DNA of 64,000 nt from Candidatus Levyibacteriota bacterium (GCA_016182185.1 JACOXU010000003.1:123881-187880); one strand, 5' to 3'; shown: positions 3,339 to 64,000, counted from the first letter of the stretch. Numbers and translations are program-made. The notes: generated by a model from the sequence alone, not told the origin.

Positions 3339-3466
3339 AATGATAAATTTCTAATTATTCTAATTTCTAATTGATCTAAACAAATTCCAATTTCAAAATT
3401 TCCCAAATAAAACTTTATGCTTGTAATTTTTTAGAAATTAGGTTAATTAGATCAATTAGGTCAATT
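3339..3466. repeat. intergenic AT-rich degenerate tandem repeat array (AATTAGRAATT family)
   Basis: CTAATTTCTAATTGATCTAA ... TTAGAAATTAGGTTAATTAGATCAATTAGGTCAATT. Confidence 0.5.
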
Positions 3467-26610: not shown

Positions 26611-26887
26611 TACTTAAATAATAGTGGAAAAATATTCGTCGGTCAAGAGGTGGTAGGAAACTATTGAATAGAATTTATCTACCCTCAGTATAACGGATAG
26701 ATCAAGCGCTATTCATTCTCCCGCCAAAGGCGGGATTCGCTTGTGGCCAATACACTTTCTCGCAAAATTTCTACTCTTAACCTAATTAGAAATTAGAAAA
26801 TTAAAAATTAGAAATTCCACTCCGCGTCAGCGGAGGGGCTTAGGTGTCTTCTCTCAATCCAATACTGAGTAAAATCGAAGTATTAGA

Positions 26888-28340
<1,453 letters not shown>

Positions 28341-31338: not shown

Positions 31339-31424
31339 ATTTTATTATGATCATATCTTTTAAATCTTGTCAAGTGTTGCCACTTAATACTTAATACTCT
31401 ATACTGAATACTAACTACAGTATT

Positions 31425-33849: not shown

Positions 33850-33919
33850 AACTTATACAGTTTATTTTAAACTATACCATACTTGTCAAGAACGAATTAT
33901 TAACTCTTGACTCTTGCTG

Positions 33920-33947
33920 TTATAATGTGTTATAACAAATTATAACG
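33920..33947 (+). promoter_or_regulatory. three direct TTATAAY repeats at 10-nt spacing upstream of AbrB-like gene
   Basis: TTATAATgtgTTATAACaaaTTATAAC. Confidence 0.4.
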
Positions 33948-33961
33948 ATACAAACCTAACA

Positions 33962-34123
33962 ATGGTAAGAAAATTATTAAGAATTGGAAATTCAGTTGGA
34001 GTAACGCTTGACAAAAAGATGTTAAGAAGTCTTGGGATGGATGGCGTGACCTGGGTCTGGATTGAACCGGATAAAAAGCACAACACAATTCTAATCCGCA
34101 AACGCGAAGAAACCGACTGGTAA
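33962..34123 (+). CDS. AbrB/MazE (SpoVT-AbrB)-like small DNA-binding protein (not in ORF track, 53 aa)
   Basis: MVRKLLRIGNSVGVTLDKKMLRSLGMDG...WIEPDKKHNTILIRKRE matches swapped-hairpin antitoxin fold; three TTATAAY direct repeats upstream. Confidence 0.5.
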   Translation: MVRKLLRIGNSVGVTLDKKMLRSLGMDGVTWVWIEPDKKHNTILIRKREETDW

Positions 34124-45611: not shown

Positions 45612-45694
45612 ATTAACCTAATTAATCTAATTGACCTAATTTCTAAATTGGGATTCTGTTTAGGTTAACTAGAAATTAGAGTGATTAGAAATTT

Positions 45695-52126: not shown

Positions 52127-52310
52127 AACAAACTAGTCTATCGTCATATGGTAAATGGTAAATTGTAAATTGTCAATCCCGCCAAGAGGCGGGACTCTTT
52201 ACATGTCAGTTAACTTTTGTTAAAATAACAAAAGCAAATTCTAAATTCAAAATCCTAAATTCTAAATAAACTCAATATCAGAATTTTGAAAATTAAAAAT
52301 TATTTGGGAT

Positions 52311-53159: not shown

Positions 53160-53261
53160 TTCTAAAATAGAAAATCAAAAATAAAAGATAAAAAATACAT
53201 ATGAAAAATAAAATAGAAAGAAATATTTTATATTTAATTTTTAATATTTAATATTCCAACC

Positions 53262-53684: not shown

Positions 53685-53773
53685 CTCAGAGTTAAAAACT
53701 AAGAGTTAAAAGTTAAAAAAGTTTTTAGTTATTCGTTTTTAGTTCTTAGCTTGACTGACTGAAAGGAAAAAAC

Positions 53774-54617: not shown

Positions 54618-55940
54618 TTATTTCAATTTGTCACTAACAAAGACGTCTCCTGCAAGCGGAATTCTTGGACCTCTTCTTATCTTCCACTTGGGTAATTCCC
54701 CGTGTTTTGAAAGCACTTCGTCATAATATGCGACATGTTGTCCAGCGATTATTTTCCAGGCAAATCTTTCCCGAACATCCTGTCCTGATTTCACTCTTAT
54801 TTCTCTGGCGGCCTCCTCCGGAAGACTTAAAACCCTATTTATCTGAGTTGCAAGACTATCGGAATCAAAAGGCCTTGCCATAAATCCATATAAATCATCA
54901 CCTATTGCCTCATTCTGTCCTCTAATGTCAGTACAAACCACCAATGTTCCACAGCTTCTGGCCTCAGCTATCGTTCTGTTGAATCCCTCTCCTCCAATTG
55001 ATGGAGCAACTACAACATCCGCACTTCTGTAAGCCCGCGCAAGATCTTCTTTGGATAAGACTCCAAGAAATTCTACGTCAGGAATGTCCTCTTTTTTAAC
55101 TATTTCTTTTAACCTTTCCGTCATGTCCCCTTTCCCGGCTAGTTTTAATTTAAGAGCATCAAATCCTACCCGTCTCAAAGAGGCATAAGCCTGCAAGAGA
55201 TATTCAAGTCCTTTCCGCCCGTCATGTCTTCCGGCAAAAAAGATCGTTTTCTTTCCATCTTCCCATTTTTCAAGTTTTGGGCCATCCGGATTAAAAAATC
55301 CTACATTAATTCCGTTATAAATCACTCTGTACTCTCCCGGAAACATTTCATTCCAAAACTGCGCAGTCCCATTTGAGACTGCAATTCTTCCGCTCAAAGT
55401 CTTTTCTATTGTATTTACATATCCCATAGTCAATCCTGTAGGAATACCATAACTAAACTTTGGCCTGCGAAGTATCTTTGCTGCAATTGTATATGCCCTG
55501 GCCAGCGCATCGATTCCATGCGGAGGATAACCGGCATGAAATTGTCCGACAACAGGAACTATCCTTTTTTCATTTTCATCTTTGGGAATAGCAGAAAATA
55601 GTGTGTGCGAAGAATTGGGAACACCCGGCTCATGGGAAATAATAATATGAGGCTTTACAGCCTCAAGAATCTGCCTTGCTCTTCCTTTATTAAATGTCAC
55701 AGCGGCATCAATTTTGGTTTCGATGACAGGAATACTTACGGGATTGCCTAAATGATAATCCGCCCTGTCACTTTGTCTATTTTTATTGGTAGGACCAAGT
55801 GTCCTCACATCACAGCCCTGTGCCTCAAGAAACGGGATTATTTCCTGTATAAAACTACTAACCCCGCTGGGATAATCAGTTCTGATCGGATATGGTGAAT
55901 GAATTAAGACTTTAAGACTTGATCGTCTTTCCTGATTCAT
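54618..55940 (-). CDS. GT4-family glycosyltransferase
   Basis: 440 aa; C-terminal EGFNRTIAEARSCGTLVV (E-x7-E region). Confidence 0.7.
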   Translation of the reverse strand: MNQERRSSLKVLIHSPYPIRTDYPSGVSSFIQEIIPFLEAQGCDVRTLGPTNKNRQSDRADYHLGNPVSIPVIETKIDAAVTFNKGRARQILEAVKPHIIISHEPGVPNSSHTLFSAIPKDENEKRIVPVVGQFHAGYPPHGIDALARAYTIAAKILRRPKFSYGIPTGLTMGYVNTIEKTLSGRIAVSNGTAQFWNEMFPGEYRVIYNGINVGFFNPDGPKLEKWEDGKKTIFFAGRHDGRKGLEYLLQAYASLRRVGFDALKLKLAGKGDMTERLKEIVKKEDIPDVEFLGVLSKEDLARAYRSADVVVAPSIGGEGFNRTIAEARSCGTLVVCTDIRGQNEAIGDDLYGFMARPFDSDSLATQINRVLSLPEEAAREIRVKSGQDVRERFAWKIIAGQHVAYYDEVLSKHGELPKWKIRRGPRIPLAGDVFVSDKLK

Positions 55941-55959: not shown

Positions 55960-56170
55960 CCCTAGTTAGGTTTCAATAAACTTCTTGACTATTCCAAAAT
56001 GTTTTGCTAAACTTACAAAACCTAAGACAGCAAGAGTTCAGCGGCTAGCAATTAGTAATTAGCCACTAGAACATAAACACTTGCCGAGGATATTAGCAAC
56101 TAGCCACTAGTAGCTGGATACTAGTTGCTTCGCTACTCGCTTAGGCGAGTTTTTTTATGAGCAAATAACT
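55960..56170 (+). promoter_or_regulatory. rplJ (L10) leader: promoter TTGACT-17-TAAACT, stem-loops and intrinsic-terminator-like attenuator (CTCGC-TTAG-GCGAG-T7)
   Basis: about 190-nt leader with alternative stems (GGCTA...TAGCC; GCAACTAG...CTAGTTGC) ending in hairpin+T-run 56136..56157 just before rplJ ATG. Confidence 0.45.
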
Positions 56171-56819: not shown

Positions 56820-57221
56820 ATGGCAGAAAAGAAATCGAAAATTGATGAATTAATGAAGACAGTCGAGGAAATGTCTGTTCTTGAACTTTCAGAGTTTGTG
56901 AAAGCACTGGAAGAAAAATTTGGTGTAACTGCACAAGCTATGGCCACGTCAAACGTGGTTACAGGAGGAAGCGAAGCCGCGTCTGACGCGGAGCCGAAAG
57001 AGGAACAAACAGTCTTTAACGTAGTAGTCGCAAGTTCCGGCGCCAACAAAATCTCTGTTATCAAAGCCTTAAGAGAACTCGTTCCCACATTGGGACTTAA
57101 AGAAGCCAAAGATTTGGTCGATGCAGCTCCAAAAGAAGTAATGACCCAAGTCAACAAAAAAACAGCAGACGAAGCCAAGGAAAAACTCACGGCAGCCGGC
57201 GCAACAATAGAGCTAAAGTAA
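56820..57221 (+). CDS. rplL: 50S ribosomal protein L7/L12
   Basis: 133 aa; NTD MAEKKSKIDELMKTVEEMSVLELSEFVKALEEKFGV, Ala/Glu hinge, CTD; carries 26-nt GC element in hinge. Confidence 0.9.
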   Translation: MAEKKSKIDELMKTVEEMSVLELSEFVKALEEKFGVTAQAMATSNVVTGGSEAASDAEPKEEQTVFNVVVASSGANKISVIKALRELVPTLGLKEAKDLVDAAPKEVMTQVNKKTADEAKEKLTAAGATIELK

Positions 57222-57239
57222 GAATCGCTAAAAAGTCTT

Positions 57240-57350
57240 AACGAGTCTTAATGAGATTTCTTAACGATCTTAACGATACGGGATCGTCAAATGTCATCAA
57301 ATGTCATCAAAGAAATGCGTTGTTCTTACGTAATTATCTGCGTAATTCTG
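57240..57350. repeat. cluster of short direct-repeat iterons downstream of rplL
   Basis: 4x CTTAAYGA(G/T), 2.5x GTCATCAAAT, 2x GCGTAATTnTCTGCG, followed by palindrome GGGCAACAAGTTGCCC and TTGACA. Confidence 0.5.
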
Positions 57351-57471
57351 CGGAGGGCAACAAGTTGCCCCTTGACAAGAAGTGTTATGGTTTGTTATTT
57401 TGTAGATAGTTAACTTATATATTGATCCTAATTAAATATGGATTGATTAGAATAAATATAGTCTTGAGCCT

Positions 57472-57687
57472 ATGAGTAATCAAACTCTATCAATCAATAA
57501 TCTTCCTGATCTTCTTACTGTTCGTGAAGTTGCTCAAATTCTCCGTGTTTCTCCGCTTACTATAAAACGCTGGGGCAAAAGAGGTAAGCTTCCTGCCATC
57601 CGTATAAATTCCCGTGGCGACCGAAGATATAAAAAAGAAGCAGTAATGTGGCTACTTGGCATACAGGAAAAAAGAGAAATCCTCTAG
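57472..57687 (+). CDS. excisionase-family (MerR-like) HTH DNA-binding protein
   Basis: 71 aa; LLTVREVAQILRVSPLTIKRWGKRGKLPAIRINSRGDRRYKKE matches helix_turn_helix excisionase-family pattern. Confidence 0.55.
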   Translation: MSNQTLSINNLPDLLTVREVAQILRVSPLTIKRWGKRGKLPAIRINSRGDRRYKKEAVMWLLGIQEKREIL

Positions 57688-57781
57688 AAAATTCCTAAAT
57701 CCTAATTACCCTAATTACTCTAAATAAATCCCAAGTCCCAATTTTAAATTTTTAGATCAATTAGGTCAATTAGAAATTAGG
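57688..57781. repeat. intergenic degenerate tandem repeat array (AATTAGGTCAATTAGAAATTAGG family)
   Basis: CCTAAATCCTAATTACCCTAATTACTCTAAAT...TTAGATCAATTAGGTCAATTAGAAATTAGGTTAATTA. Confidence 0.5.
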
Positions 57782-58135
57782 TTAATTATTAATACTTAAT
57801 ATCCTTCCAAATATTCTGATTAGAGCTTCGCTTTCATCCTCAATAAACCCGATTGTCTGATGAGGCTTTCTACCCTCTGAGCTCTTCAGGATTTTTACCC
57901 AGTATTTAGTTTCTCTCATTTCTCTTTTGGCCTGTGTCATTTTAAACACGAAGTCTTTCCCTTCTGCAACTTTGGCTTTTTCATAAACCTCCTCTGCCAT
58001 TTTGATCTTGCGCGTAATCTGATTGGAAAGTACAAAATTCACACTGCTGTAAGGAAGTTTCTCCCTAAGCTCCATTGCGAAAGACAGGAGGTTCAATATC
58101 CTTCTCTCTATATAATGCGTTAGTTCAATACTCAT
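57782..58135 (-). CDS. four-helix-bundle protein (PF05635 / bAvd-like)
   Basis: 117 aa; RETKYWVKILKSS ... EALIRIFGRIL matches conserved ETxYWL core of family. Confidence 0.5.
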   Translation of the reverse strand: MSIELTHYIERRILNLLSFAMELREKLPYSSVNFVLSNQITRKIKMAEEVYEKAKVAEGKDFVFKMTQAKREMRETKYWVKILKSSEGRKPHQTIGFIEDESEALIRIFGRILSINN

Positions 58136-58197
58136 ATTATAAAATTTCTAAATCCTAATTATTCTAATTACTAATCAAATCCCAATTCTCCAATTTA

Positions 58198-58557
58198 TTA
58201 TTTAACTTTTTTATATATTGAATTGAAAATTAAGTTTAGTTCTTTTGCTTCCTGCCATAATATTCTTGCTTCTTCTTTTAACTGTGGGGCAGCAACTACA
58301 ATCATTCGCAGAAAATGTTTTACTTCTCTTGCTTCTTTTTTGCAGATTCCTATTTTATGCTTAAAATCTTGTTTACTTTCTGCATCATCCGCTTCTGAGT
58401 AATTTGCGCCAATACTTGTCTCTGCTTTAACAAGCTGACTAATCAAAGGGTTGGTTATTGGGTTTTTAGAAATTGACTTACAAAAGATAATGACATTCTT
58501 TCCAAACTTTGCCGTCCTCTCTTCCAGATCGTACTTGTTATTTATTTTTTTATTCAT
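58198..58557 (-). CDS. four-helix-bundle protein (PF05635 / bAvd-like)
   Basis: 119 aa; QLVKAETSIGANYSEADDAESKQDFKHKIGICKKEAREVKHFLRMI matches 23S-rRNA-IVS/Avd family core. Confidence 0.6.
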   Translation of the reverse strand: MNKKINNKYDLEERTAKFGKNVIIFCKSISKNPITNPLISQLVKAETSIGANYSEADDAESKQDFKHKIGICKKEAREVKHFLRMIVVAAPQLKEEARILWQEAKELNLIFNSIYKKVK

Positions 58558-58606
58558 TTATTAGGTTAATTAGGTCAATTAGAAATTAGTTCAATTTGCT
58601 GGTGAG
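58558..58606. repeat. intergenic repeat array between giant gene and 4HB gene
   Basis: TTAGGTTAATTAGGTCAATTAGAAATTAGTTCAATTT. Confidence 0.5.
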
Positions 58607-61600
58607 CTACCGTTCGTCGACTATCCACCAATCAAACTTGATATCTCGACTGTAGCGTCTTTCAATCTCAACTGTGAAGCCTGAGCCGGCTGCTTTATTC
58701 GTAACCACGAGCGGCTGGCCTCCGGTAAGGCTTGTGGCAGTCACAAATATTCTGGATTTATTGGTCACGGCAGCCGTATCAACTACCACACTCGTATCTC
58801 CTGCGAGCAGGGTCCCCGAACCCAGCGAAGCCGCGTTTGACGCGGTGGTATCGATATTGACTTTCTTGGCTGTGATTTCACCTTCTGTTTTTATATTTCC
58901 ATTGGTATCAATCGTGACTTTGCCTGAGAGTATATTTATCCCACCCAAGCCATTGCTCTGAAGGTTCAAATCTCCAATACTATTTATAGATGCTCCCCCA
59001 TCTCCATTGTTAAGCGATGAGTCAAGTCCGTGAATTGACAAGAGCCCTGCTGCGATGTTACCGGTCACTCCCAGATCTGCAGTCGTCGTTCTGCCCAGCA
59101 CCATCAAGTTGCCTGATATTGTCGCGCTCTCTGCGTTGATATTGGTCAGATCAGGTAGAAGCGAAGCCGCGTTTGACGCGGTTGAGACACCCAATACTGC
59201 TCCATTCAGCATGCTCTGCAGGAAGGCAGATTCTGATGCCAGCTGATCCACTCTTTGTGAGAGACTATTGGTATTAAGCTCTAAGCCGGTTACTCTATTT
59301 TGCATATCCGCGAACAACGGATCACTACTCAAATCAAATGTCCCCGAAGATGAAGCTGACGATACGGGATCGTTACTTGGGTTGATCAGTCCCAGCAACT
59401 GGCTCGCCTCCTCCGCACTAAACTGCGCATATGGATTAGTCACGCTCCCATCTGCTGCAATTTGAATCCTCGGATCTCTCCAGGAAAGGTTTATAAATAC
59501 TGAAATTTTACCAATAATATCCGGATCTGAGTTGCTGTAGCCTTCAATAGCAATCCCTATAACCATTCCCGGCTTTGTTGCCTTCATGGCTACACCGGGC
59601 TTACTTGATGCAGTAAGAGAATCACCCGGCATTATTTCTCCATTTTCCGCAGATACTTTTACAGGAACACGACCAGAAAGAGCAACAGCGACTTCTTTTA
59701 CTGATCGGGGGTCTGTTTTCTGACCATGCCCACCAAGCAACACACCTGGTTTTTCTGAGATGACACCAAGCATTGCAGAATTTGTGGATGACTTTTGAAC
59801 AAATTCTGTTTCGTAGTCATGTTCAAAAGGATTATCAGGTGGGGTATCAGGTTTGGGCTGATAATTTAAACTTACAACGTCCCCAGCTTCTATTGAATCA
59901 TCAAGCGTCGGGAAATTTTCAGCTATATCATCAATCGTAAAGCTTGAACTAATACCATATACAGTACCTGCAGTTCTTGAAGCATCAATACAGTCGTCTG
60001 CAGTATCTAGAGAATCATCTGCGCAGATAGCTCCATAGGCTAGTATACCATTGCCGCCTATATTAGTAGTCACATTAGCTCCGGCTGCTCCGACAAGCAA
60101 ATCCCCCCCGCTTCCTCCTGTGACAGTAAATATAGTAGCCCCCGAGGCTGAGGCGGTAAAAATATCTAGACCAGATGTTTGGTTTATAACTGCTGCTGCC
60201 TTACCGCCTGATGCTCCGGAAAGATTAAGCATCGAACCAAGACCCGAGCTTGTGACGTTAAGTACGGCCCCTGTTGAAAGCCCATTACTCTGGGTAAGAG
60301 AAAGAACATTTGCAGTATCGGTACAGCCGCCAGTGGTAATACTGCAATTGGATGTCAGATTTGCCAATGAGCCAGATAGACTAACAGATCCAACTGGTAT
60401 CATAGAGACTCCATTGTCTACCCAATTGCCTGACCCCGTATTAGACCACGAATGAGTTGGATTCTCTTGCGTGCTGTCTGAATAAGCTACGGATGGATTA
60501 AGAAATCCGCCCTGTCTTTTTGTATTAACCCCCGTAGTCGTGAGTGTTCCGCTAACCGCTGAGGCTACTATATCTATTGCCGTTCTGCCCAAAGAGTTTG
60601 TGATGGCATTATTAGGCGTAGTACTAGAACCAGTTGAAGAGGTACAACCTGCAAAAGCGCTTCCTACAGTTTGATTAATGTTAAAGTAGCTGGCAGTAAT
60701 AACATAACCACGATCACTTCCACTTCCATTGGTGAAGTTTACACTTGTTGTATTAGCGCCTGAAGATGAAGAATCCCCCATTGCTATAGCAAAAATATCC
60801 GTAGCTACACTAGTGCCATTTGTAGCCTGACTACAGACTCTCGTAGCGGAACTTCCGCCGTACGTTACAGTATTAATTGTTTCAGAATTTGCATTCTGAT
60901 ATGCAATGGCTATTACCACCATACGGTTGCTTCCTGCTCCCAAAGTATGGCTGTTAGTTATTGTAGTATTAGTAAGAGTCCAACTACTTATAACAGAGGA
61001 GTCATAAACACTTGTATTTATGCTTAAATTTCGATTTAGATTTAGCAAATTACCGGAGTCAGTATTGATAGCTGTATATGTAGCGGTATGATCTCCATTG
61101 ATAAGATTGGCAGAAGTCAAATTGGCAGAAGTGGAAAGGACATTTAGGCCCTTACCCGTAGTTAGGGAATTTGCGGCGATTGAGAACGCGTCTCCTGTAG
61201 TTGCAGAAGAGGTTGCAAAGACAGACCCCCAATTATTTATAGTAAAGACTGTGCTTCCCGATTTTGATGCTGTGAAAATATCTGCATTTGGTGAAAGGTC
61301 TGTTTGATTTACTCTAAGAGCTGCGTTATTCCCGCTGATGCCGGATATGTCTAATAATCCTATTGGACTTGTATTTCCGATACCTACTCTGCCAATATTA
61401 TTTATAACAAATTTTGTAGAGCCTGAAGAAGAGGCGGATAGAATATAATCATTTGTATTAGTTCCAGTTTGGTTGAGAATCATCAAAGCGTTGTGTCCGT
61501 TGTTGCCTGATAGATCAAGGAGTCCAAGTGGGCTTGTGTTGCCGACCCCGACCCTACCAAGATTGTTGATGACAAATTTGGTAACACCAGAGGATGAGGC

Positions 61601-64000
61601 AGCCAAAACATAATCGTTGGCATTGGTACCAGTCTGGTTAAGGATCATTAAGGCGTTTTGTCCGTTATTACCAGATAGATCAAAAAGACCTAAGGGAGTC
61701 GAATTCCCAATCCCAACTTTACCGAGTTTATTTATAACGAACTTAGTTGTCCCGCTCTTTGAAGCTGTAAAGATGTCATTATTCCCTGTCTGATTGATAA
61801 TTGCAGCTGCCTTACCACCGGAGGCTCCTGAAATATTTAGCATTGGCCCAAGACCTGAGGTGGCGATGTTGAGTACCGCACCTGTCGAAAGACCATAACT
61901 CTGGTTAAGAGAAAGAAGATTTGAACTATCATTGCAAATTCCAGCTGTTACAGTACAATTAGAGGTTATTGACGCAAGGCTTCCCGTAAGATCTGCTGTG
62001 CCTACTCCGGGAACGAGTGCCACTCCTAGATGATACCAAGATAAATCAGTACCACCGGCAGTCCAGGCCATGTTGGTGCTTGCACCTGTAGCTGATTCTT
62101 CCGAATAAGCGGCTACATAGACTGTCGAGCCGTATGTTTGGTTCCATCTCTGCGTTTGATTACTTCCTCCAGGAAGTGAGAGTGTCGGGTTTATGCCTGC
62201 ATTCAGCATAGAATCTATTACAACATCCCCGCTCTGGCTTGTAACATTTAAGCTTGGGCTGGTACCCGAACCTGTTTCGGTCTGACAAGTAGCACGAAAT
62301 GGGCTTGTTTGAGAGACTCCGCTATAAGTTGTTGCTAAAGCGACCCAGGTCTCACTATTACCTAATGTTATTGATACAGTATTTGAACCCGAACTTGGAT
62401 TAAGCAAATAATACATATCTATGGCTTCTGTTCCTGGTGAAAAAGTACAGCCTGGAATCAAAGTGAGCGCTGAACCGTTATAAGTAATAGATGATATTCC
62501 AGCATTTCCTGCTCTTGATACGGTAACTATTAATATACGGTTGTCACCCGTTCCGGTAGTGTGTGAAAAATTAGCTGAACTACCTGTTTGCTCAGCCAGA
62601 GTGGTACTATTATCATAAGCAATAGTTTGAGTTGAGGTATTCAGAGTATAATTTCTACTAAGGCTTGCTAAATTTCCAGAAATATTAGCATTACTCGTAC
62701 CGGTATACGTATTGGTCTGGTTTACATTTAATCCTTTACCACTCGTCAGCGAATTTGCTACGATTGAGAAGGCGTCTGTCGAAACTGCAGAAGAAGTGGC
62801 ATAGATACCTCTATTTATAGTATCAAAATTGAGCATCGAACTTCCGGCAGCATCTGCAATCTGAAGAGCTGTTGATGAATTGGTCAAAGGCAGCCATTGC
62901 GCACCTGCGACGGAGACCAGATTTCCTCCGTTTGTAATTCTGAACTTGGTCGTTCCGCTTGTTGAGGCGGCTAGAATGTCATTCGTGCTTGCGCCGGTTT
63001 GGTTGATGATAAGAGCGGCGTTTCCTCCCTGATTTCCTCCTTGCAAATCCAGAAGCGCAGTTGGGGTGGTTGTGCCGATGCCCGCCCAGACATAATTCGC
63101 TCCAGTCCCTCCAAGAACCAGCCTATTGCTTGCTCCCACAATCGCGTTGTATCCAAGGGCTGTAGAACCGTTGATGCTGTTTGATGATGTTTGAGATAGA
63201 TATCCTATGAATGTGTTGTTGCTTCCCGAGGTGAGTGGAACACCTTGAGTGCCTGCTGAAACTCCGATGGCTGTATTGCCCGAGCCTGTAACATTTTGAA
63301 GAGCAGCGTTTCCCAACGCAGTGTTATTGGTTCCTGTATTTCCAGAGCTAAGACCTACGAAGGTGTTCGTTCCTCCGGGTGCTCTGAATAGATTATTATT
63401 GGATTGTTTTATGATAATCTCTCCGGTCGTATCTCCTCCGATAGTCAAAGTCCTTTGGGCGGTTGACTGTATACTTCCGCCTGCTCCGAGCGAGAAATTA
63501 CCGGCGATAGAAGCAGTAGGAGTACCCGAATTGATATTCAAGACTGCGAACTTTGCAGATTGGGTCGTGGTTCCACCCAGAAGAAGATCAACTGTATTGG
63601 CAAAGGCAGGAGTATAAGCTCCACTCACCAGATCCCATCTTGCGCCTGCACAGTCACTTGAAGCAGTAACTATACCATTTGAGGTAGTTACACAGGAGCC
63701 TGATACATCTGCTCCGGCTGTGCCATTGATCCTGAGCTTACTTGATCCAGCCAAGCTGATATTTATATCTCCTGTGTCTCCTCCGCCCAAGGTCAGAGTT
63801 TGTCTATTCGTAGACGTAAGACTTCCTGCTGTATCTATAGTAAATCCTGCAGCAGATGAAGCATTACCGCTGTTGGTGACTCTGAATTTAGTTGCACCGG
63901 ATGAAGAGGCGGCAAGAATATCACCGTTTGAAGTAGAATTATTGACTATAAGAGTCGCGTTGTTGCCTGCGTCTCCGGTTATTTCAAGAAATGCTTTAGG
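58607..64000 (-). CDS. giant Gly/Ser/Thr/Asn-rich repetitive surface protein (partial; N-terminus beyond window)
   Basis: ORF track 58607..63790 (1727 aa) starts at an in-frame TTG; reading frame stays open to position 64000; tandem about 57-aa repeats (NQTGTN..DY.L.ASSSG.TKFVINN.GRVG.GNTSP.GLLD), two copies of about 180-aa domain shared with 17662..20253. Confidence 0.6.
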   Translation of the reverse strand, partial: PKAFLEITGDAGNNATLIVNNSTSNGDILAASSSGATKFRVTNSGNASSAAGFTIDTAGSLTSTNRQTLTLGGGDTGDINISLAGSSKLRINGTAGADVSGSCVTTSNGIVTASSDCAGARWDLVSGAYTPAFANTVDLLLGGTTTQSAKFAVLNINSGTPTASIAGNFSLGAGGSIQSTAQRTLTIGGDTTGEIIIKQSNNNLFRAPGGTNTFVGLSSGNTGTNNTALGNAALQNVTGSGNTAIGVSAGTQGVPLTSGSNNTFIGYLSQTSSNSINGSTALGYNAIVGASNRLVLGGTGANYVWAGIGTTTPTALLDLQGGNQGGNAALIINQTGASTNDILAASTSGTTKFRITNGGNLVSVAGAQWLPLTNSSTALQIADAAGSSMLNFDTINRGIYATSSAVSTDAFSIVANSLTSGKGLNVNQTNTYTGTSNANISGNLASLSRNYTLNTSTQTIAYDNSTTLAEQTGSSANFSHTTGTGDNRILIVTVSRAGNAGISSITYNGSALTLIPGCTFSPGTEAIDMYYLLNPSSGSNTVSITLGNSETWVALATTYSGVSQTSPFRATCQTETGSGTSPSLNVTSQSGDVVIDSMLNAGINPTLSLPGGSNQTQRWNQTYGSTVYVAAYSEESATGASTNMAWTAGGTDLSWYHLGVALVPGVGTADLTGSLASITSNCTVTAGICNDSSNLLSLNQSYGLSTGAVLNIATSGLGPMLNISGASGGKAAAIINQTGNNDIFTASKSGTTKFVINKLGKVGIGNSTPLGLFDLSGNNGQNALMILNQTGTNANDYVLAASSSGVTKFVINNLGRVGVGNTSPLGLLDLSGNNGHNALMILNQTGTNTNDYILSASSSGSTKFVINNIGRVGIGNTSPIGLLDISGISGNNAALRVNQTDLSPNADIFTASKSGSTVFTINNWGSVFATSSATTGDAFSIAANSLTTGKGLNVLSTSANLTSANLINGDHTATYTAINTDSGNLLNLNRNLSINTSVYDSSVISSWTLTNTTITNSHTLGAGSNRMVVIAIAYQNANSETINTVTYGGSSATRVCSQATNGTSVATDIFAIAMGDSSSSGANTTSVNFTNGSGSDRGYVITASYFNINQTVGSAFAGCTSSTGSSTTPNNAITNSLGRTAIDIVASAVSGTLTTTGVNTKRQGGFLNPSVAYSDSTQENPTHSWSNTGSGNWVDNGVSMIPVGSVSLSGSLANLTSNCSITTGGCTDTANVLSLTQSNGLSTGAVLNVTSSGLGSMLNLSGASGGKAAAVINQTSGLDIFTASASGATIFTVTGGSGGDLLVGAAGANVTTNIGGNGILAYGAICADDSLDTADDCIDASRTAGTVYGISSSFTIDDIAENFPTLDDSIEAGDVVSLNYQPKPDTPPDNPFEHDYETEFVQKSSTNSAMLGVISEKPGVLLGGHGQKTDPRSVKEVAVALSGRVPVKVSAENGEIMPGDSLTASSKPGVAMKATKPGMVIGIAIEGYSNSDPDIIGKISVFINLSWRDPRIQIAADGSVTNPYAQFSAEEASQLLGLINPSNDPVSSASSSGTFDLSSDPLFADMQNRVTGLELNTNSLSQRVDQLASESAFLQSMLNGAVLGVSTASNAASLLPDLTNINAESATISGNLMVLGRTTTADLGVTGNIAAGLLSIHGLDSSLNNGDGGASINSIGDLNLQSNGLGGINILSGKVTIDTNGNIKTEGEITAKKVNIDTTASNAASLGSGTLLAGDTSVVVDTAAVTNKSRIFVTATSLTGGQPLVVTNKAAGSGFTVEIERRYSRDIKFDWWIVDER
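61390..61900 (-). repeat. intragenic tandem repeats, about 171-nt unit x3, inside giant gene
   Basis: units share about 80 percent identity (…CAAATTTGGTAACACCAGAGGATGAGGCAGCCAAAACATAATC… vs …CAAATTTTGTAGAGCCTGAAGAAGAGGCGGATAGAATATAATC…). Confidence 0.6.

Follow-up and report, generated by a model that had tools for sequence, protein, structure and literature searches.

The closest described counterpart of the element reported here is the S23p-encoding intervening sequence (IVS) found in the 23S rRNA of Coxiella, Leptospira, and others. In Coxiella, this "selfish" insert of 428 to 444 nt has a 28-bp terminal stem, cut by RNase III, with the S23p open reading frame (ORF) in its loop, and tandem GACAGAT heptamers stand just before the ATG, with a poor Shine-Dalgarno sequence (PMC4990558). 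Two further described systems bear on the same DNA: the Avd protein of diversity-generating retroelements (DGRs) is regarded as a homolog of PF05635 proteins, 2GSC among them (PMC10053308), and the Streptomyces protein BldC, which has 68 residues and is MerR-like, binds 9-bp direct repeats of the form AATTXXXX(C) as head-to-tail multimers (PMC5859096). Here we analyze a 64,000-nt stretch from a Candidatus Levyibacteriota bacterium (GCA_016182185.1 JACOXU010000003.1:123881-187880, hereafter the window), in which the ribosomal protein gene rplL is followed by short repeats and a palindrome, a gene for a small helix-turn-helix (HTH) protein, two genes for four-helix-bundle (4HB) proteins, termed 4HB-A and 4HB-B, and a giant repeat-protein gene. 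The element in question is a 471-bp cassette that has 4HB-B as its ORF.

These features had been picked out in a reading made from the sequence alone (the sequence-only reading), and ORF, repeat, and profile searches recovered every one of them (Table 1). That reading joined them into an inserted island that breaks the rplL–rpoBC gene order. We arrive at a different view. The region is probably the ordinary end of a Levybacteria rplKAJL cluster, with rpoBC unlinked, and it holds four unrelated things: spacer repeats, a core BldC-family regulator, a convergent giant-gene unit, and the 471-bp cassette. For the cassette we put forward a more tentative reading, which we regard as possible rather than probable. 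In this reading the 4HB-B cassette and a set of ORF-less hairpins form a family, spread across the Candidate Phyla Radiation (CPR), that dwells in transcripts: its members would fit operon spacers from stop codon to start codon, be transcribed by the host, and be excised from the RNA at a stem made of CTAATT and AATTAG units.

Table 1. Features of the window, with coordinates and strand, and the sites at which the cassette was found
Feature	Coordinates	Strand	Basis or remark
rplL (L7/L12), final gene of the rplKAJL cluster	56820..57221	+	ORF; Pfam Ribosomal_L12 matched on the identical gene in L188
Short tandem repeats ("iterons"), AGTCTTAACG-type ×4 and TCAAATGTCA ×2.5	57234..57311	+	TRF and repeat families
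Palindrome GGGCAAC-AA-GTTGCCC	57355..57370	+	1 base upstream of the −35 box of the HTH promoter
HTH promoter: TTGACA, 18 nt, TG-extended TATTTT	57372..57401	+	Promoter scan; core conserved in 44 species
BldC-family small winged-HTH protein, 71 aa ("excisionase-like HTH")	57472..57687	+	HTH_17, E 7e-11
Solo hairpin: CTAATT array, ..TTGGGATTT.., AATTAG array	57688..57781	-	Whole spacer between the convergent HTH and 4HB-A genes
4HB-A, resident gene downstream of the giant gene	57782..58135	-	TIGR02436 31.3 bits (cutoff 24); PDB 2RLD, E 3e-4
IVS-like cassette, 471 bp	58136..58606	-	Insertion relative to L008
Cassette 3′ part: ..TTGGGATTT.., then tandem AATTAG(N1-3) units ending AGAAATTT	58138-58196	-	3′ of 4HB-B
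4HB-B	58198-58557	-	PF05635 E 3e-11, 43.9 bits (cutoff 33.8); TIGR02436 63.9 bits (cutoff 24)
Cassette 5′ arrays, tandem CTAATT(N1-3) units	58558-58600	-	5′ of 4HB-B
Giant repeat-protein gene, 3′ part, ~1797-1798 codons	58607..64000	-	Open to base 64000, off the window
Second solo hairpin	3339..3466	-	Fills the spacer between co-oriented genes; on the genes' strand starts AATTGACCTAATT, ends AATTAGAAATTT
Third solo hairpin	45612..45694	+	Fills the spacer between co-oriented genes
Cassette site: window, giant gene then 4HB-A			
Cassette site: L019, 218-aa ORF (unannotated) then 431-aa ORF			
Cassette site: def then fmt			
Cassette site: zwf then gnd			
Cassette site: rmlB-like then rmlC			
Cassette site: within the ATP synthase operon			
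Cassette site: pheT upstream; penicillin-binding protein gene on the opposite strand downstream			
Cassette site: PrgI then TraC-like			
Cassette site: 125-aa gene then sortase			

The window comes from a Levybacteria-like CPR bacterium, and for comparison we assembled a set of 80 species-level metagenome-assembled genomes whose RplL is 66 to 83% identical to that of the window; where the titles of these genomes are informative, most read Candidatus Levybacteria/Levyibacteriota or Patescibacteria. The rplL gene was taken from each with 10 kb on either side (~1.16 Mb in total), which gave ~50 loci with at least 5 kb of sequence after rplL. RpoB and RpoC carry the universal motifs RHGNKG, NMQRQ, GEMEVW, and NADFDGD. 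No occurrence of any of the four was found in the window or in the 80 loci, in a search that was run without a positive control. The loci contain 24 ORFs of at least 850 aa, 11 of them giant-protein homologs, and a Pfam scan of five of the 24 (the giants of L012 and L032 and the ORFs of L018, L035, and L043) matched no RNA-polymerase family. The small HTH gene adjoins rplL in 48 of the 80 loci, and in a second Levybacteria subclade (within L023–L078; for example L049, L056, and L069) rplL is followed by rpmB (L28), not by the HTH gene. Because the rpoBC motifs are missing from all these loci, and an HTH gene or rpmB is the usual neighbor of rplL, the absence of rpoB from the neighborhood of rplL is a lineage trait rather than the result of a local insertion. 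Comparing synteny among relatives, as the sequence-only reading had proposed, thus speaks against its own claim of a broken gene order. One point weighs on the other side: the window ends within the giant gene, and the genes past it, together with the position of rpoB in the source genome, lie outside the data.

Within this lineage-typical layout, the 4HB-B gene occupies a discrete inserted segment. The interval between the stop codon of the giant gene and the ATG of 4HB-A measures 13 nt in L008, the closest relative, and 471 nt in the window. L019 has a module ~80% identical in DNA, at a site unrelated to this one, with homology that ends at the arrays. Homologs of 4HB-B run to thousands, at 75 to 86% identity, under source names that include Levy-, Davies-, Curtiss-, Gottesman-, and Taylorbacteria, and the cassette itself was found in operon spacers of at least four other CPR lineages. 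Nine copies were analyzed: those of the window and L019 and those of seven further CPR contigs. All nine are located between protein-coding genes, none in a 23S rRNA gene, and every one has the orientation of its upstream gene. The fit to the spacer is tight. Seven of the eight copies outside the window start directly at the upstream stop codon, usually as (A)AATTGACCTAATT (the offset is 12 nt in the window and ~50 nt in L019), and each copy with an annotated co-oriented downstream gene ends 3 to 13 nt before the start codon of that gene. Two to four CTAATT(N3) units end 0 to 19 nt before the cassette ATG, a GGAGG or Shine-Dalgarno sequence is present in none of the copies, and no promoter-like site recurs across them. 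CTAATT/AATTAG-type arrays are concentrated at the 4HB genes, with 17 in ~4.5 kb vs. 3 in 38.7 kb. Neither cassette nor hairpin has an Rfam match at either threshold, and our literature searches returned nothing on this cassette family in Patescibacteria; an IVS-like four-helix-bundle cassette outside rRNA genes appears not to have been described before.

Folding predictions support a paired structure for the cassette. The minimum-energy fold of the whole element joins its 5′ arrays to its 3′ arrays over the ORF by 14 to 39 base pairs in every one of the nine copies, and the predicted duplex energies of the flanks range from −8 to −43 kcal/mol, with means of −5 to −14 for shuffled sequence. Comparison between copies gives a ratio of nonsynonymous to synonymous substitution (dN/dS) of less than 0.1 with saturation at synonymous sites, and the arrays are retained. 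Protein and arrays are therefore both under selection, as dN/dS is low and the arrays persist in spite of the saturation.

The plan of this segment is that of the S23p-encoding IVSs. Both are short inserts, the cassette and its counterparts together spanning ~430 to 470 nt, of a kind that has been called selfish; both have a PF05635-family ORF in the loop of a terminal-inverted-repeat stem, which for the cassette is a predicted one; both place short tandem direct repeats immediately before an ATG with a weak or absent Shine-Dalgarno sequence; and transcription, confined in the IVSs to the host transcript, would be so confined in the cassette as well. The differences are equally clear. The cassette sits in operon spacers between protein genes rather than in helix 25 or 45 of 23S rRNA, its stem consists of arrays of CTAATT and AATTAG units instead of one 28-bp inverted repeat, and strong purifying selection acts on its ORF, while that of Coxiella is decaying. 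Cleavage by RNase III is known for the IVSs and is proposed for the cassette by analogy. Because the plan is the same as in the Coxiella IVS, we propose that the cassette is cotranscribed, forms a stem, and is cut by a double-strand RNase. Specifically, read-through within the host operon would transcribe it, the 5′ CTAATT arrays would pair with the 3′ AATTAG arrays into a long imperfect stem enclosing the ORF, and an enzyme such as RNase III may then cut that stem and so release the 4HB message from that of the host, as is the case for the S23p-encoding IVSs. Solo hairpins would be the same element minus its ORF.

The sequence of the solo hairpins fits this relation. Deletion of the ORF leaves a cassette junction that can be aligned over its full length with the hairpin at 57686–57785 (nhmmer, E 4e-8), in which the inverted repeat, I2, has 31-nt arms that are 81% complementary. 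Two more hairpins lie elsewhere in the window (Table 1), and ORF-less elements fill entire spacers in L004, L055, and L162 as well. Wherever the flanking genes are codirectional, the solo element has their orientation (5 of 5 spacers). Such elements recall the Correia elements of Neisseria and the ERIC and REP sequences of enterobacteria, which are cotranscribed intergenic hairpin repeats and of which the Correia elements are cut by RNase III. Like these, the solo elements (~85 to 130 bp) are imperfect palindromes in transcribed intergenic spacers; unlike them, they have arms built from arrays of 7- to 9-nt units, they span exactly from stop to start, and a subset has a protein gene in the loop. 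Exact look-ups of 4HB-B and of the HTH gene gave only short Logan contigs, and these short-read assemblies of the organism (L001, L188, and L189) break exactly at CTAATT/AATTAG hairpins, either past the HTH gene or in the interval from 4HB-B to 4HB-A; such assembly breaks would fit hairpin elements that are repeated in the genome.

Several points count against a transcript-dwelling, mobile cassette. The stem is AU-rich and imperfect, and owes most of its stability to the repeated CTAATT/AATTAG cores, which preclude a clean covariation test. An RNase III gene was not located in this genome, and read-through transcription, cleavage, and any mobility are predictions from the DNA sequence. No transposase, target-site duplication, or near-identical cassette copies were found in the material examined; since synonymous sites are saturated too, the case for mobility comes down to the patchy distribution and a single empty site, and the L008 gap could be a deletion. 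The same saturation, the strong purifying selection on the protein, the low copy number (apparently about one per genome segment examined), and the missing transposase and target duplication would also suit an ordinary, vertically inherited gene, with the arrays as its regulatory region and terminator and its various positions produced by rearrangement and loss. Such a gene, however, would have to be found inside operons that are contiguous in bacteria generally (def–fmt, zwf–gnd, and atp), in a different operon in each lineage, and with an exact stop-to-start fit. It would also have to be reconciled with the 13 nt of L008, our closest relative, against the 471 nt of the window, with ORF-less copies that have the same ends, and with an identity of ~75 to 80% whatever the relatedness of the hosts. 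We consider vertical inheritance of this kind unlikely, and keep the transcript-dwelling family as a tentative reading of the cassette.

The HTH gene between rplL and the cassette had been read from sequence as the excisionase of an element. Instead, its product is BldC-like. The HTH_17/MerR match spans residues 14 to 66 and the alignment to BldC residues 9 to 68, so that the protein, at ~70 aa, consists of a winged HTH only, as BldC does. Its top PDB matches are the BldC structures 6AMK and 6AMA (E 2e-9), and HTH_BldC (NF033787) is its best NCBIfam model. The BldC residues R30, W31, K36, and R47-R48-Y49 are all retained (residues as named in PMC5859096). Against a BldC assignment stand the NF033787 score of 46.4 bits, below the NCBI cutoff of 77, and two replacements, Leu for K26 and Asp for H46, among the four DNA-contact residues of BldC, of which R30 and K36 are the two retained. 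The protein also resembles the excisionases (Xis; TIGR01764) of phages and integrative and conjugative elements, in that it belongs to the HTH_17 fold family and passes the domain cutoff (35.1 vs. 28.8 bits). Xis proteins, too, bind direct repeats head to tail. The window gene differs from them in being a conserved chromosomal neighbor of rplL, with no att sites and no element, and with no integrase noticed nearby (no dedicated search was made). Orthologs beside rplL are 78 to 94% identical, which exceeds the conservation of RplL itself. Unlike bldC, the gene is fixed beside rplL, and its CPR lineage is not known to have a developmental cycle. In L008, L004, L035, L040, and L063 the HTH gene and its promoter are inverted with respect to rplL or lie upstream of rplJ; the gene moves locally by inversion and stays in the neighborhood.

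The HTH promoter is conserved along with the gene. Its consensus among orthologs is TTGACA-N17/18-TG-T-TAYTTT, and a direct repeat, TGTTAT-N4-TGTTAT in the window (57383–57398) and TGTTAY-N4-TGTTAY in 44 species, occupies the spacer and the −10 region; the pattern is rare in the window. A conserved direct repeat in a target-like promoter is a further likeness to BldC, although the spacing of the TGTTAY units is 10 bp and their sequence is not the AATTxxxxC of BldC sites. From this conserved repeat we infer that the HTH protein may repress its own promoter, with TGTTAY-N4-TGTTAY as the candidate site overlapping the spacer and the −10 element. Against such autoregulation, the second TGTTAY may be no more than the TG-extended −10 element. 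Most aligned relatives have a leader of constant length, ~57 nt between the −10 element and the ATG, that includes a conserved ATTGAT motif; RNAalifold gave no consensus structure for this leader. In the window the leader (57402–57471) has a 21-nt insertion relative to 25 aligned relatives, which duplicates the ATTGAT motif. A second TGTTAY-N4-TGTTAY, at 33918, was considered as a regulon member and rejected, as it sits in the promoter of an AbrB-like antitoxin gene and looks like a TG-extended −10 box. The ORF at that place encodes 53 aa (33962–34123, plus strand; region 33900–34123), below the 90-aa limit of our ORF list, and has a TTGACT-N17-TATAAT promoter with the repeats TGTTATAATGTGTTATAACAAATTATAACGA. 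We take it, by its sequence pattern, to be AbrB/MazE-like, probably an antitoxin that has an operator of its own.

With a BldC-like protein encoded next to them, the arrays might act on DNA rather than on RNA. Their 9-bp units, AATTAGGTC, match the BldC site AATTxxxxC, and a BldC-like protein that coats them head to tail, in the way BldC coats its own repeats (PMC5859096), could control both cassette and hairpins. AATT does recur at an exact 9-bp period in the arrays at 3436, 42680, and 45611, and the arginine that reads the C-G pair is conserved in the HTH protein. But single arrays combine 7-bp with 9-bp units, AATTAG arrays are present in just 4 of the 48 HTH-bearing loci, the conserved promoter of the HTH gene has TGTTAY and not AATTAG, and the histidine that BldC places in the minor groove, H46, is the one replaced by aspartate. 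The co-orientation of solo elements with transcription in all five codirectional spacers moreover favors a role in RNA. A DNA-level function of the arrays is, in our judgment, quite improbable.

The giant gene reads toward rplL and the HTH gene. It had been described as a surface-type gene of more than 1790 aa that runs off the window, and its length is borne out: the ORF has no stop up to base 64000, and L001, a public contig with an identical 4HB-B gene, extends it to more than 2484 aa with the 5′ end still open. Searches of Pfam, NCBIfam, and PDB sequences with the giant protein gave no match, and PHROG gave a single one, to a minor tail protein (E 2e-15); its repeats resemble those of widespread "tail fiber domain-containing" proteins. 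A metagenome scan with the N-terminal part returned only distant tail-fiber repeats, at 33 to 51% identity, and no extension. A homologous giant gene converges on rplL and the HTH gene in ~10 relatives and, being present there, is not a recent arrival. Complete versions are available in L012 (1809 aa; L012:6507-11936) and L032 (2166 aa; L032:12416-18916), both of which begin with one or two MerR/HTH_17 domains and continue with a basic linker and one hydrophobic helix. As part of the reading that we hold probable for the region as a whole, the giant is a tail-fiber-like envelope protein, which in the complete relatives has its MerR-type HTH in the cytoplasm, a single membrane helix, and a very large outer part; the window protein probably shares the MerR-HTH/membrane-helix N terminus. 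The same order of MerR/HTH_17, one membrane helix, and ~1700 to 2000 aa of tail-fiber-like repeats was seen in further Microgenomates giants (P0002, P0019, and P0082, besides L012 and L032). P0002, P0019, and P0082 bear the NCBI name "MerR family transcriptional regulator," and a literature search found no study of MerR-HTH giant envelope proteins.

Directly downstream of the giant gene lies 4HB-A, which has syntenic orthologs (54 to 58% identity) next to the giant gene in L002, L004, and L008. Its PF05635 match (E 3.5e-4, 21.2 bits) is under the Pfam cutoff of 33.8, and it joins the family through TIGR02436 (Table 1). For 4HB-B, an AlphaFold model (pLDDT 92) has four helices and superposes on the stand-alone S23p proteins 2RLD and 2GSC with TM ~0.8 and on bAvd (4DWL and 8UB7) with TM 0.69 to 0.78 at ~12% identity. 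The assignment of both small proteins to the Avd/IVS four-helix-bundle family, as PF05635-like, holds. In L004 (L004:13003-14377), three PF05635 genes (197, 114, and 123 aa) stand in a row directly downstream of the giant gene, and there are hints of a recurrent link between resident 4HB genes and giant-gene 3′ ends.

From this gene content a cassette that diversifies a surface protein had been suspected. This could be an active or decayed DGR, in which the Avd-like proteins would serve a reverse transcriptase (RT) and the C-terminal part of the giant would be the target of its mutations. CPR bacteria commonly have DGRs, the modeled 4HB-B shares the four-helix-bundle fold of bAvd, and in four species the giant gene is immediately followed by an ortholog of 4HB-A. 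However, a motif search (G..x[ST]SQ...YxDD) of the window and related loci found no RT, and no adenine-biased pair of template and variable repeats was present there; the sole long repeats, in the giant gene, are in-frame protein repeats of 69 to 76% identity with mismatches at all four bases. The structures nearest to 4HB-B are those of stand-alone S23p proteins and not bAvd, to which the identity is low. Because there is no RT motif and the giant-gene repeats differ at all four bases, a diversification cassette is not supported, and we regard a DGR here as highly improbable.

The remaining component is the 250-nt spacer between rplL and the HTH gene. It contains short direct repeats, which we read from the sequence as TCTTAACGA-type units ×4 at 57234–57277, TCAAATGTCA ×2.5 at 57287–57311, and CTGCGTAATT ×2, and which had been called iterons. 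Across the window, short-period tandem arrays make up 16.7% of intergenic vs. 1.65% of genic bases (odds ratio 12), and of the 31 spacers that reach 60 nt, 17 contain them. The 9-mer TCTTAACGA alone is not enriched across the whole window, and relatives have tandem repeats in their rplL–HTH spacer too, with unrelated units. Since arrays occur in most spacers and the units differ in relatives, the "iterons" represent a general spacer style of the genome and not conserved binding sites. Most spacers of the window are made up of tandem 7- to 10-nt units with a sequence that varies from spacer to spacer (for example 31382–31412, 52148–52267, 53164–53255, and 53690–53749). A stem ends at the −35 box, as the palindrome of the window does, in 27 of 44 relatives, with different sequences (shuffled mean 16, maximum 24), which lends modest support to a hairpin positioned at the −35 box as a conserved element; the palindrome may be the rplL terminator.

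The weakest alternative, an integrated mobile element or att-site remnant in which the iterons are recombinase or Xis sites, the HTH protein is the excisionase, and the 4HB and giant genes are cargo that displaced rpoBC, is close to refuted: although the HTH protein exceeds the TIGR01764 cutoff and matches PHROG excisionase families, and direct repeats do lie upstream of its gene, that gene holds its chromosomal place beside rplL in 48 of 80 species at high identity, rpoBC is near rplL in none of the 80, the repeat units vary between species and are like those of all other spacers, and the ORFs and Pfam-annotated genes inspected around the HTH, 4HB, and giant genes, in related loci as well as in the window, included no integrase or recombinase that was noticed (no search aimed at recombinases was made). 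Of the inserted island, then, the discrete segment with 4HB-B stands; the remainder of the region is lineage-typical, its HTH gene a fixed neighbor of rplL and its repeats of the genome-wide kind.

Some neighboring features of the window are recorded here. A GT4-family glycosyltransferase gene (54618–55940, minus strand) lies between rplA and rplJ and makes a second break in the classical rplKAJL order. Its ortholog in L008 is in the same place (73% identical), and more distant ones occur in several other relatives. The L10 leader (Rfam RF00557, 44.6 bits) is intact at 56003–56164, just upstream of rplJ. The 16S rRNA gene is complete (26887–28338, minus strand) and is followed by a 735-aa protein ORF, not by 23S rRNA; the rRNA genes appear to be unlinked in this genome. 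An array of the CTAATT/AATTAG type (26781–26816) is located ~70 nt past the 16S 3′ end.

For the organism, these results correct for Levybacteria the expectation, drawn from bacteria in general, that rpoB follows rplL, and they reassign a supposed excisionase to a conserved BldC-type regulator; otherwise the region is mostly ordinary. The giants with a cytoplasmic MerR-type HTH represent an unstudied architecture, annotated only as "MerR family transcriptional regulator." For the PF05635 proteins, both S23p and Avd-like, which are very widespread and have a known role only in the Avd of DGRs, the finding is that one subfamily keeps a fixed noncoding architecture despite saturated synonymous sites, in different housekeeping operons of several CPR lineages. 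The cassette provides a testable model, cotranscription followed by stem cleavage, and filled and empty sites in which to study how such an element spreads. If the model is true, the S23p-encoding IVSs of 23S rRNA would be a special case of a general life-style of Avd/S23p proteins, and the function of the family, unknown since the 1990s, would become open to study in ordinary operons.

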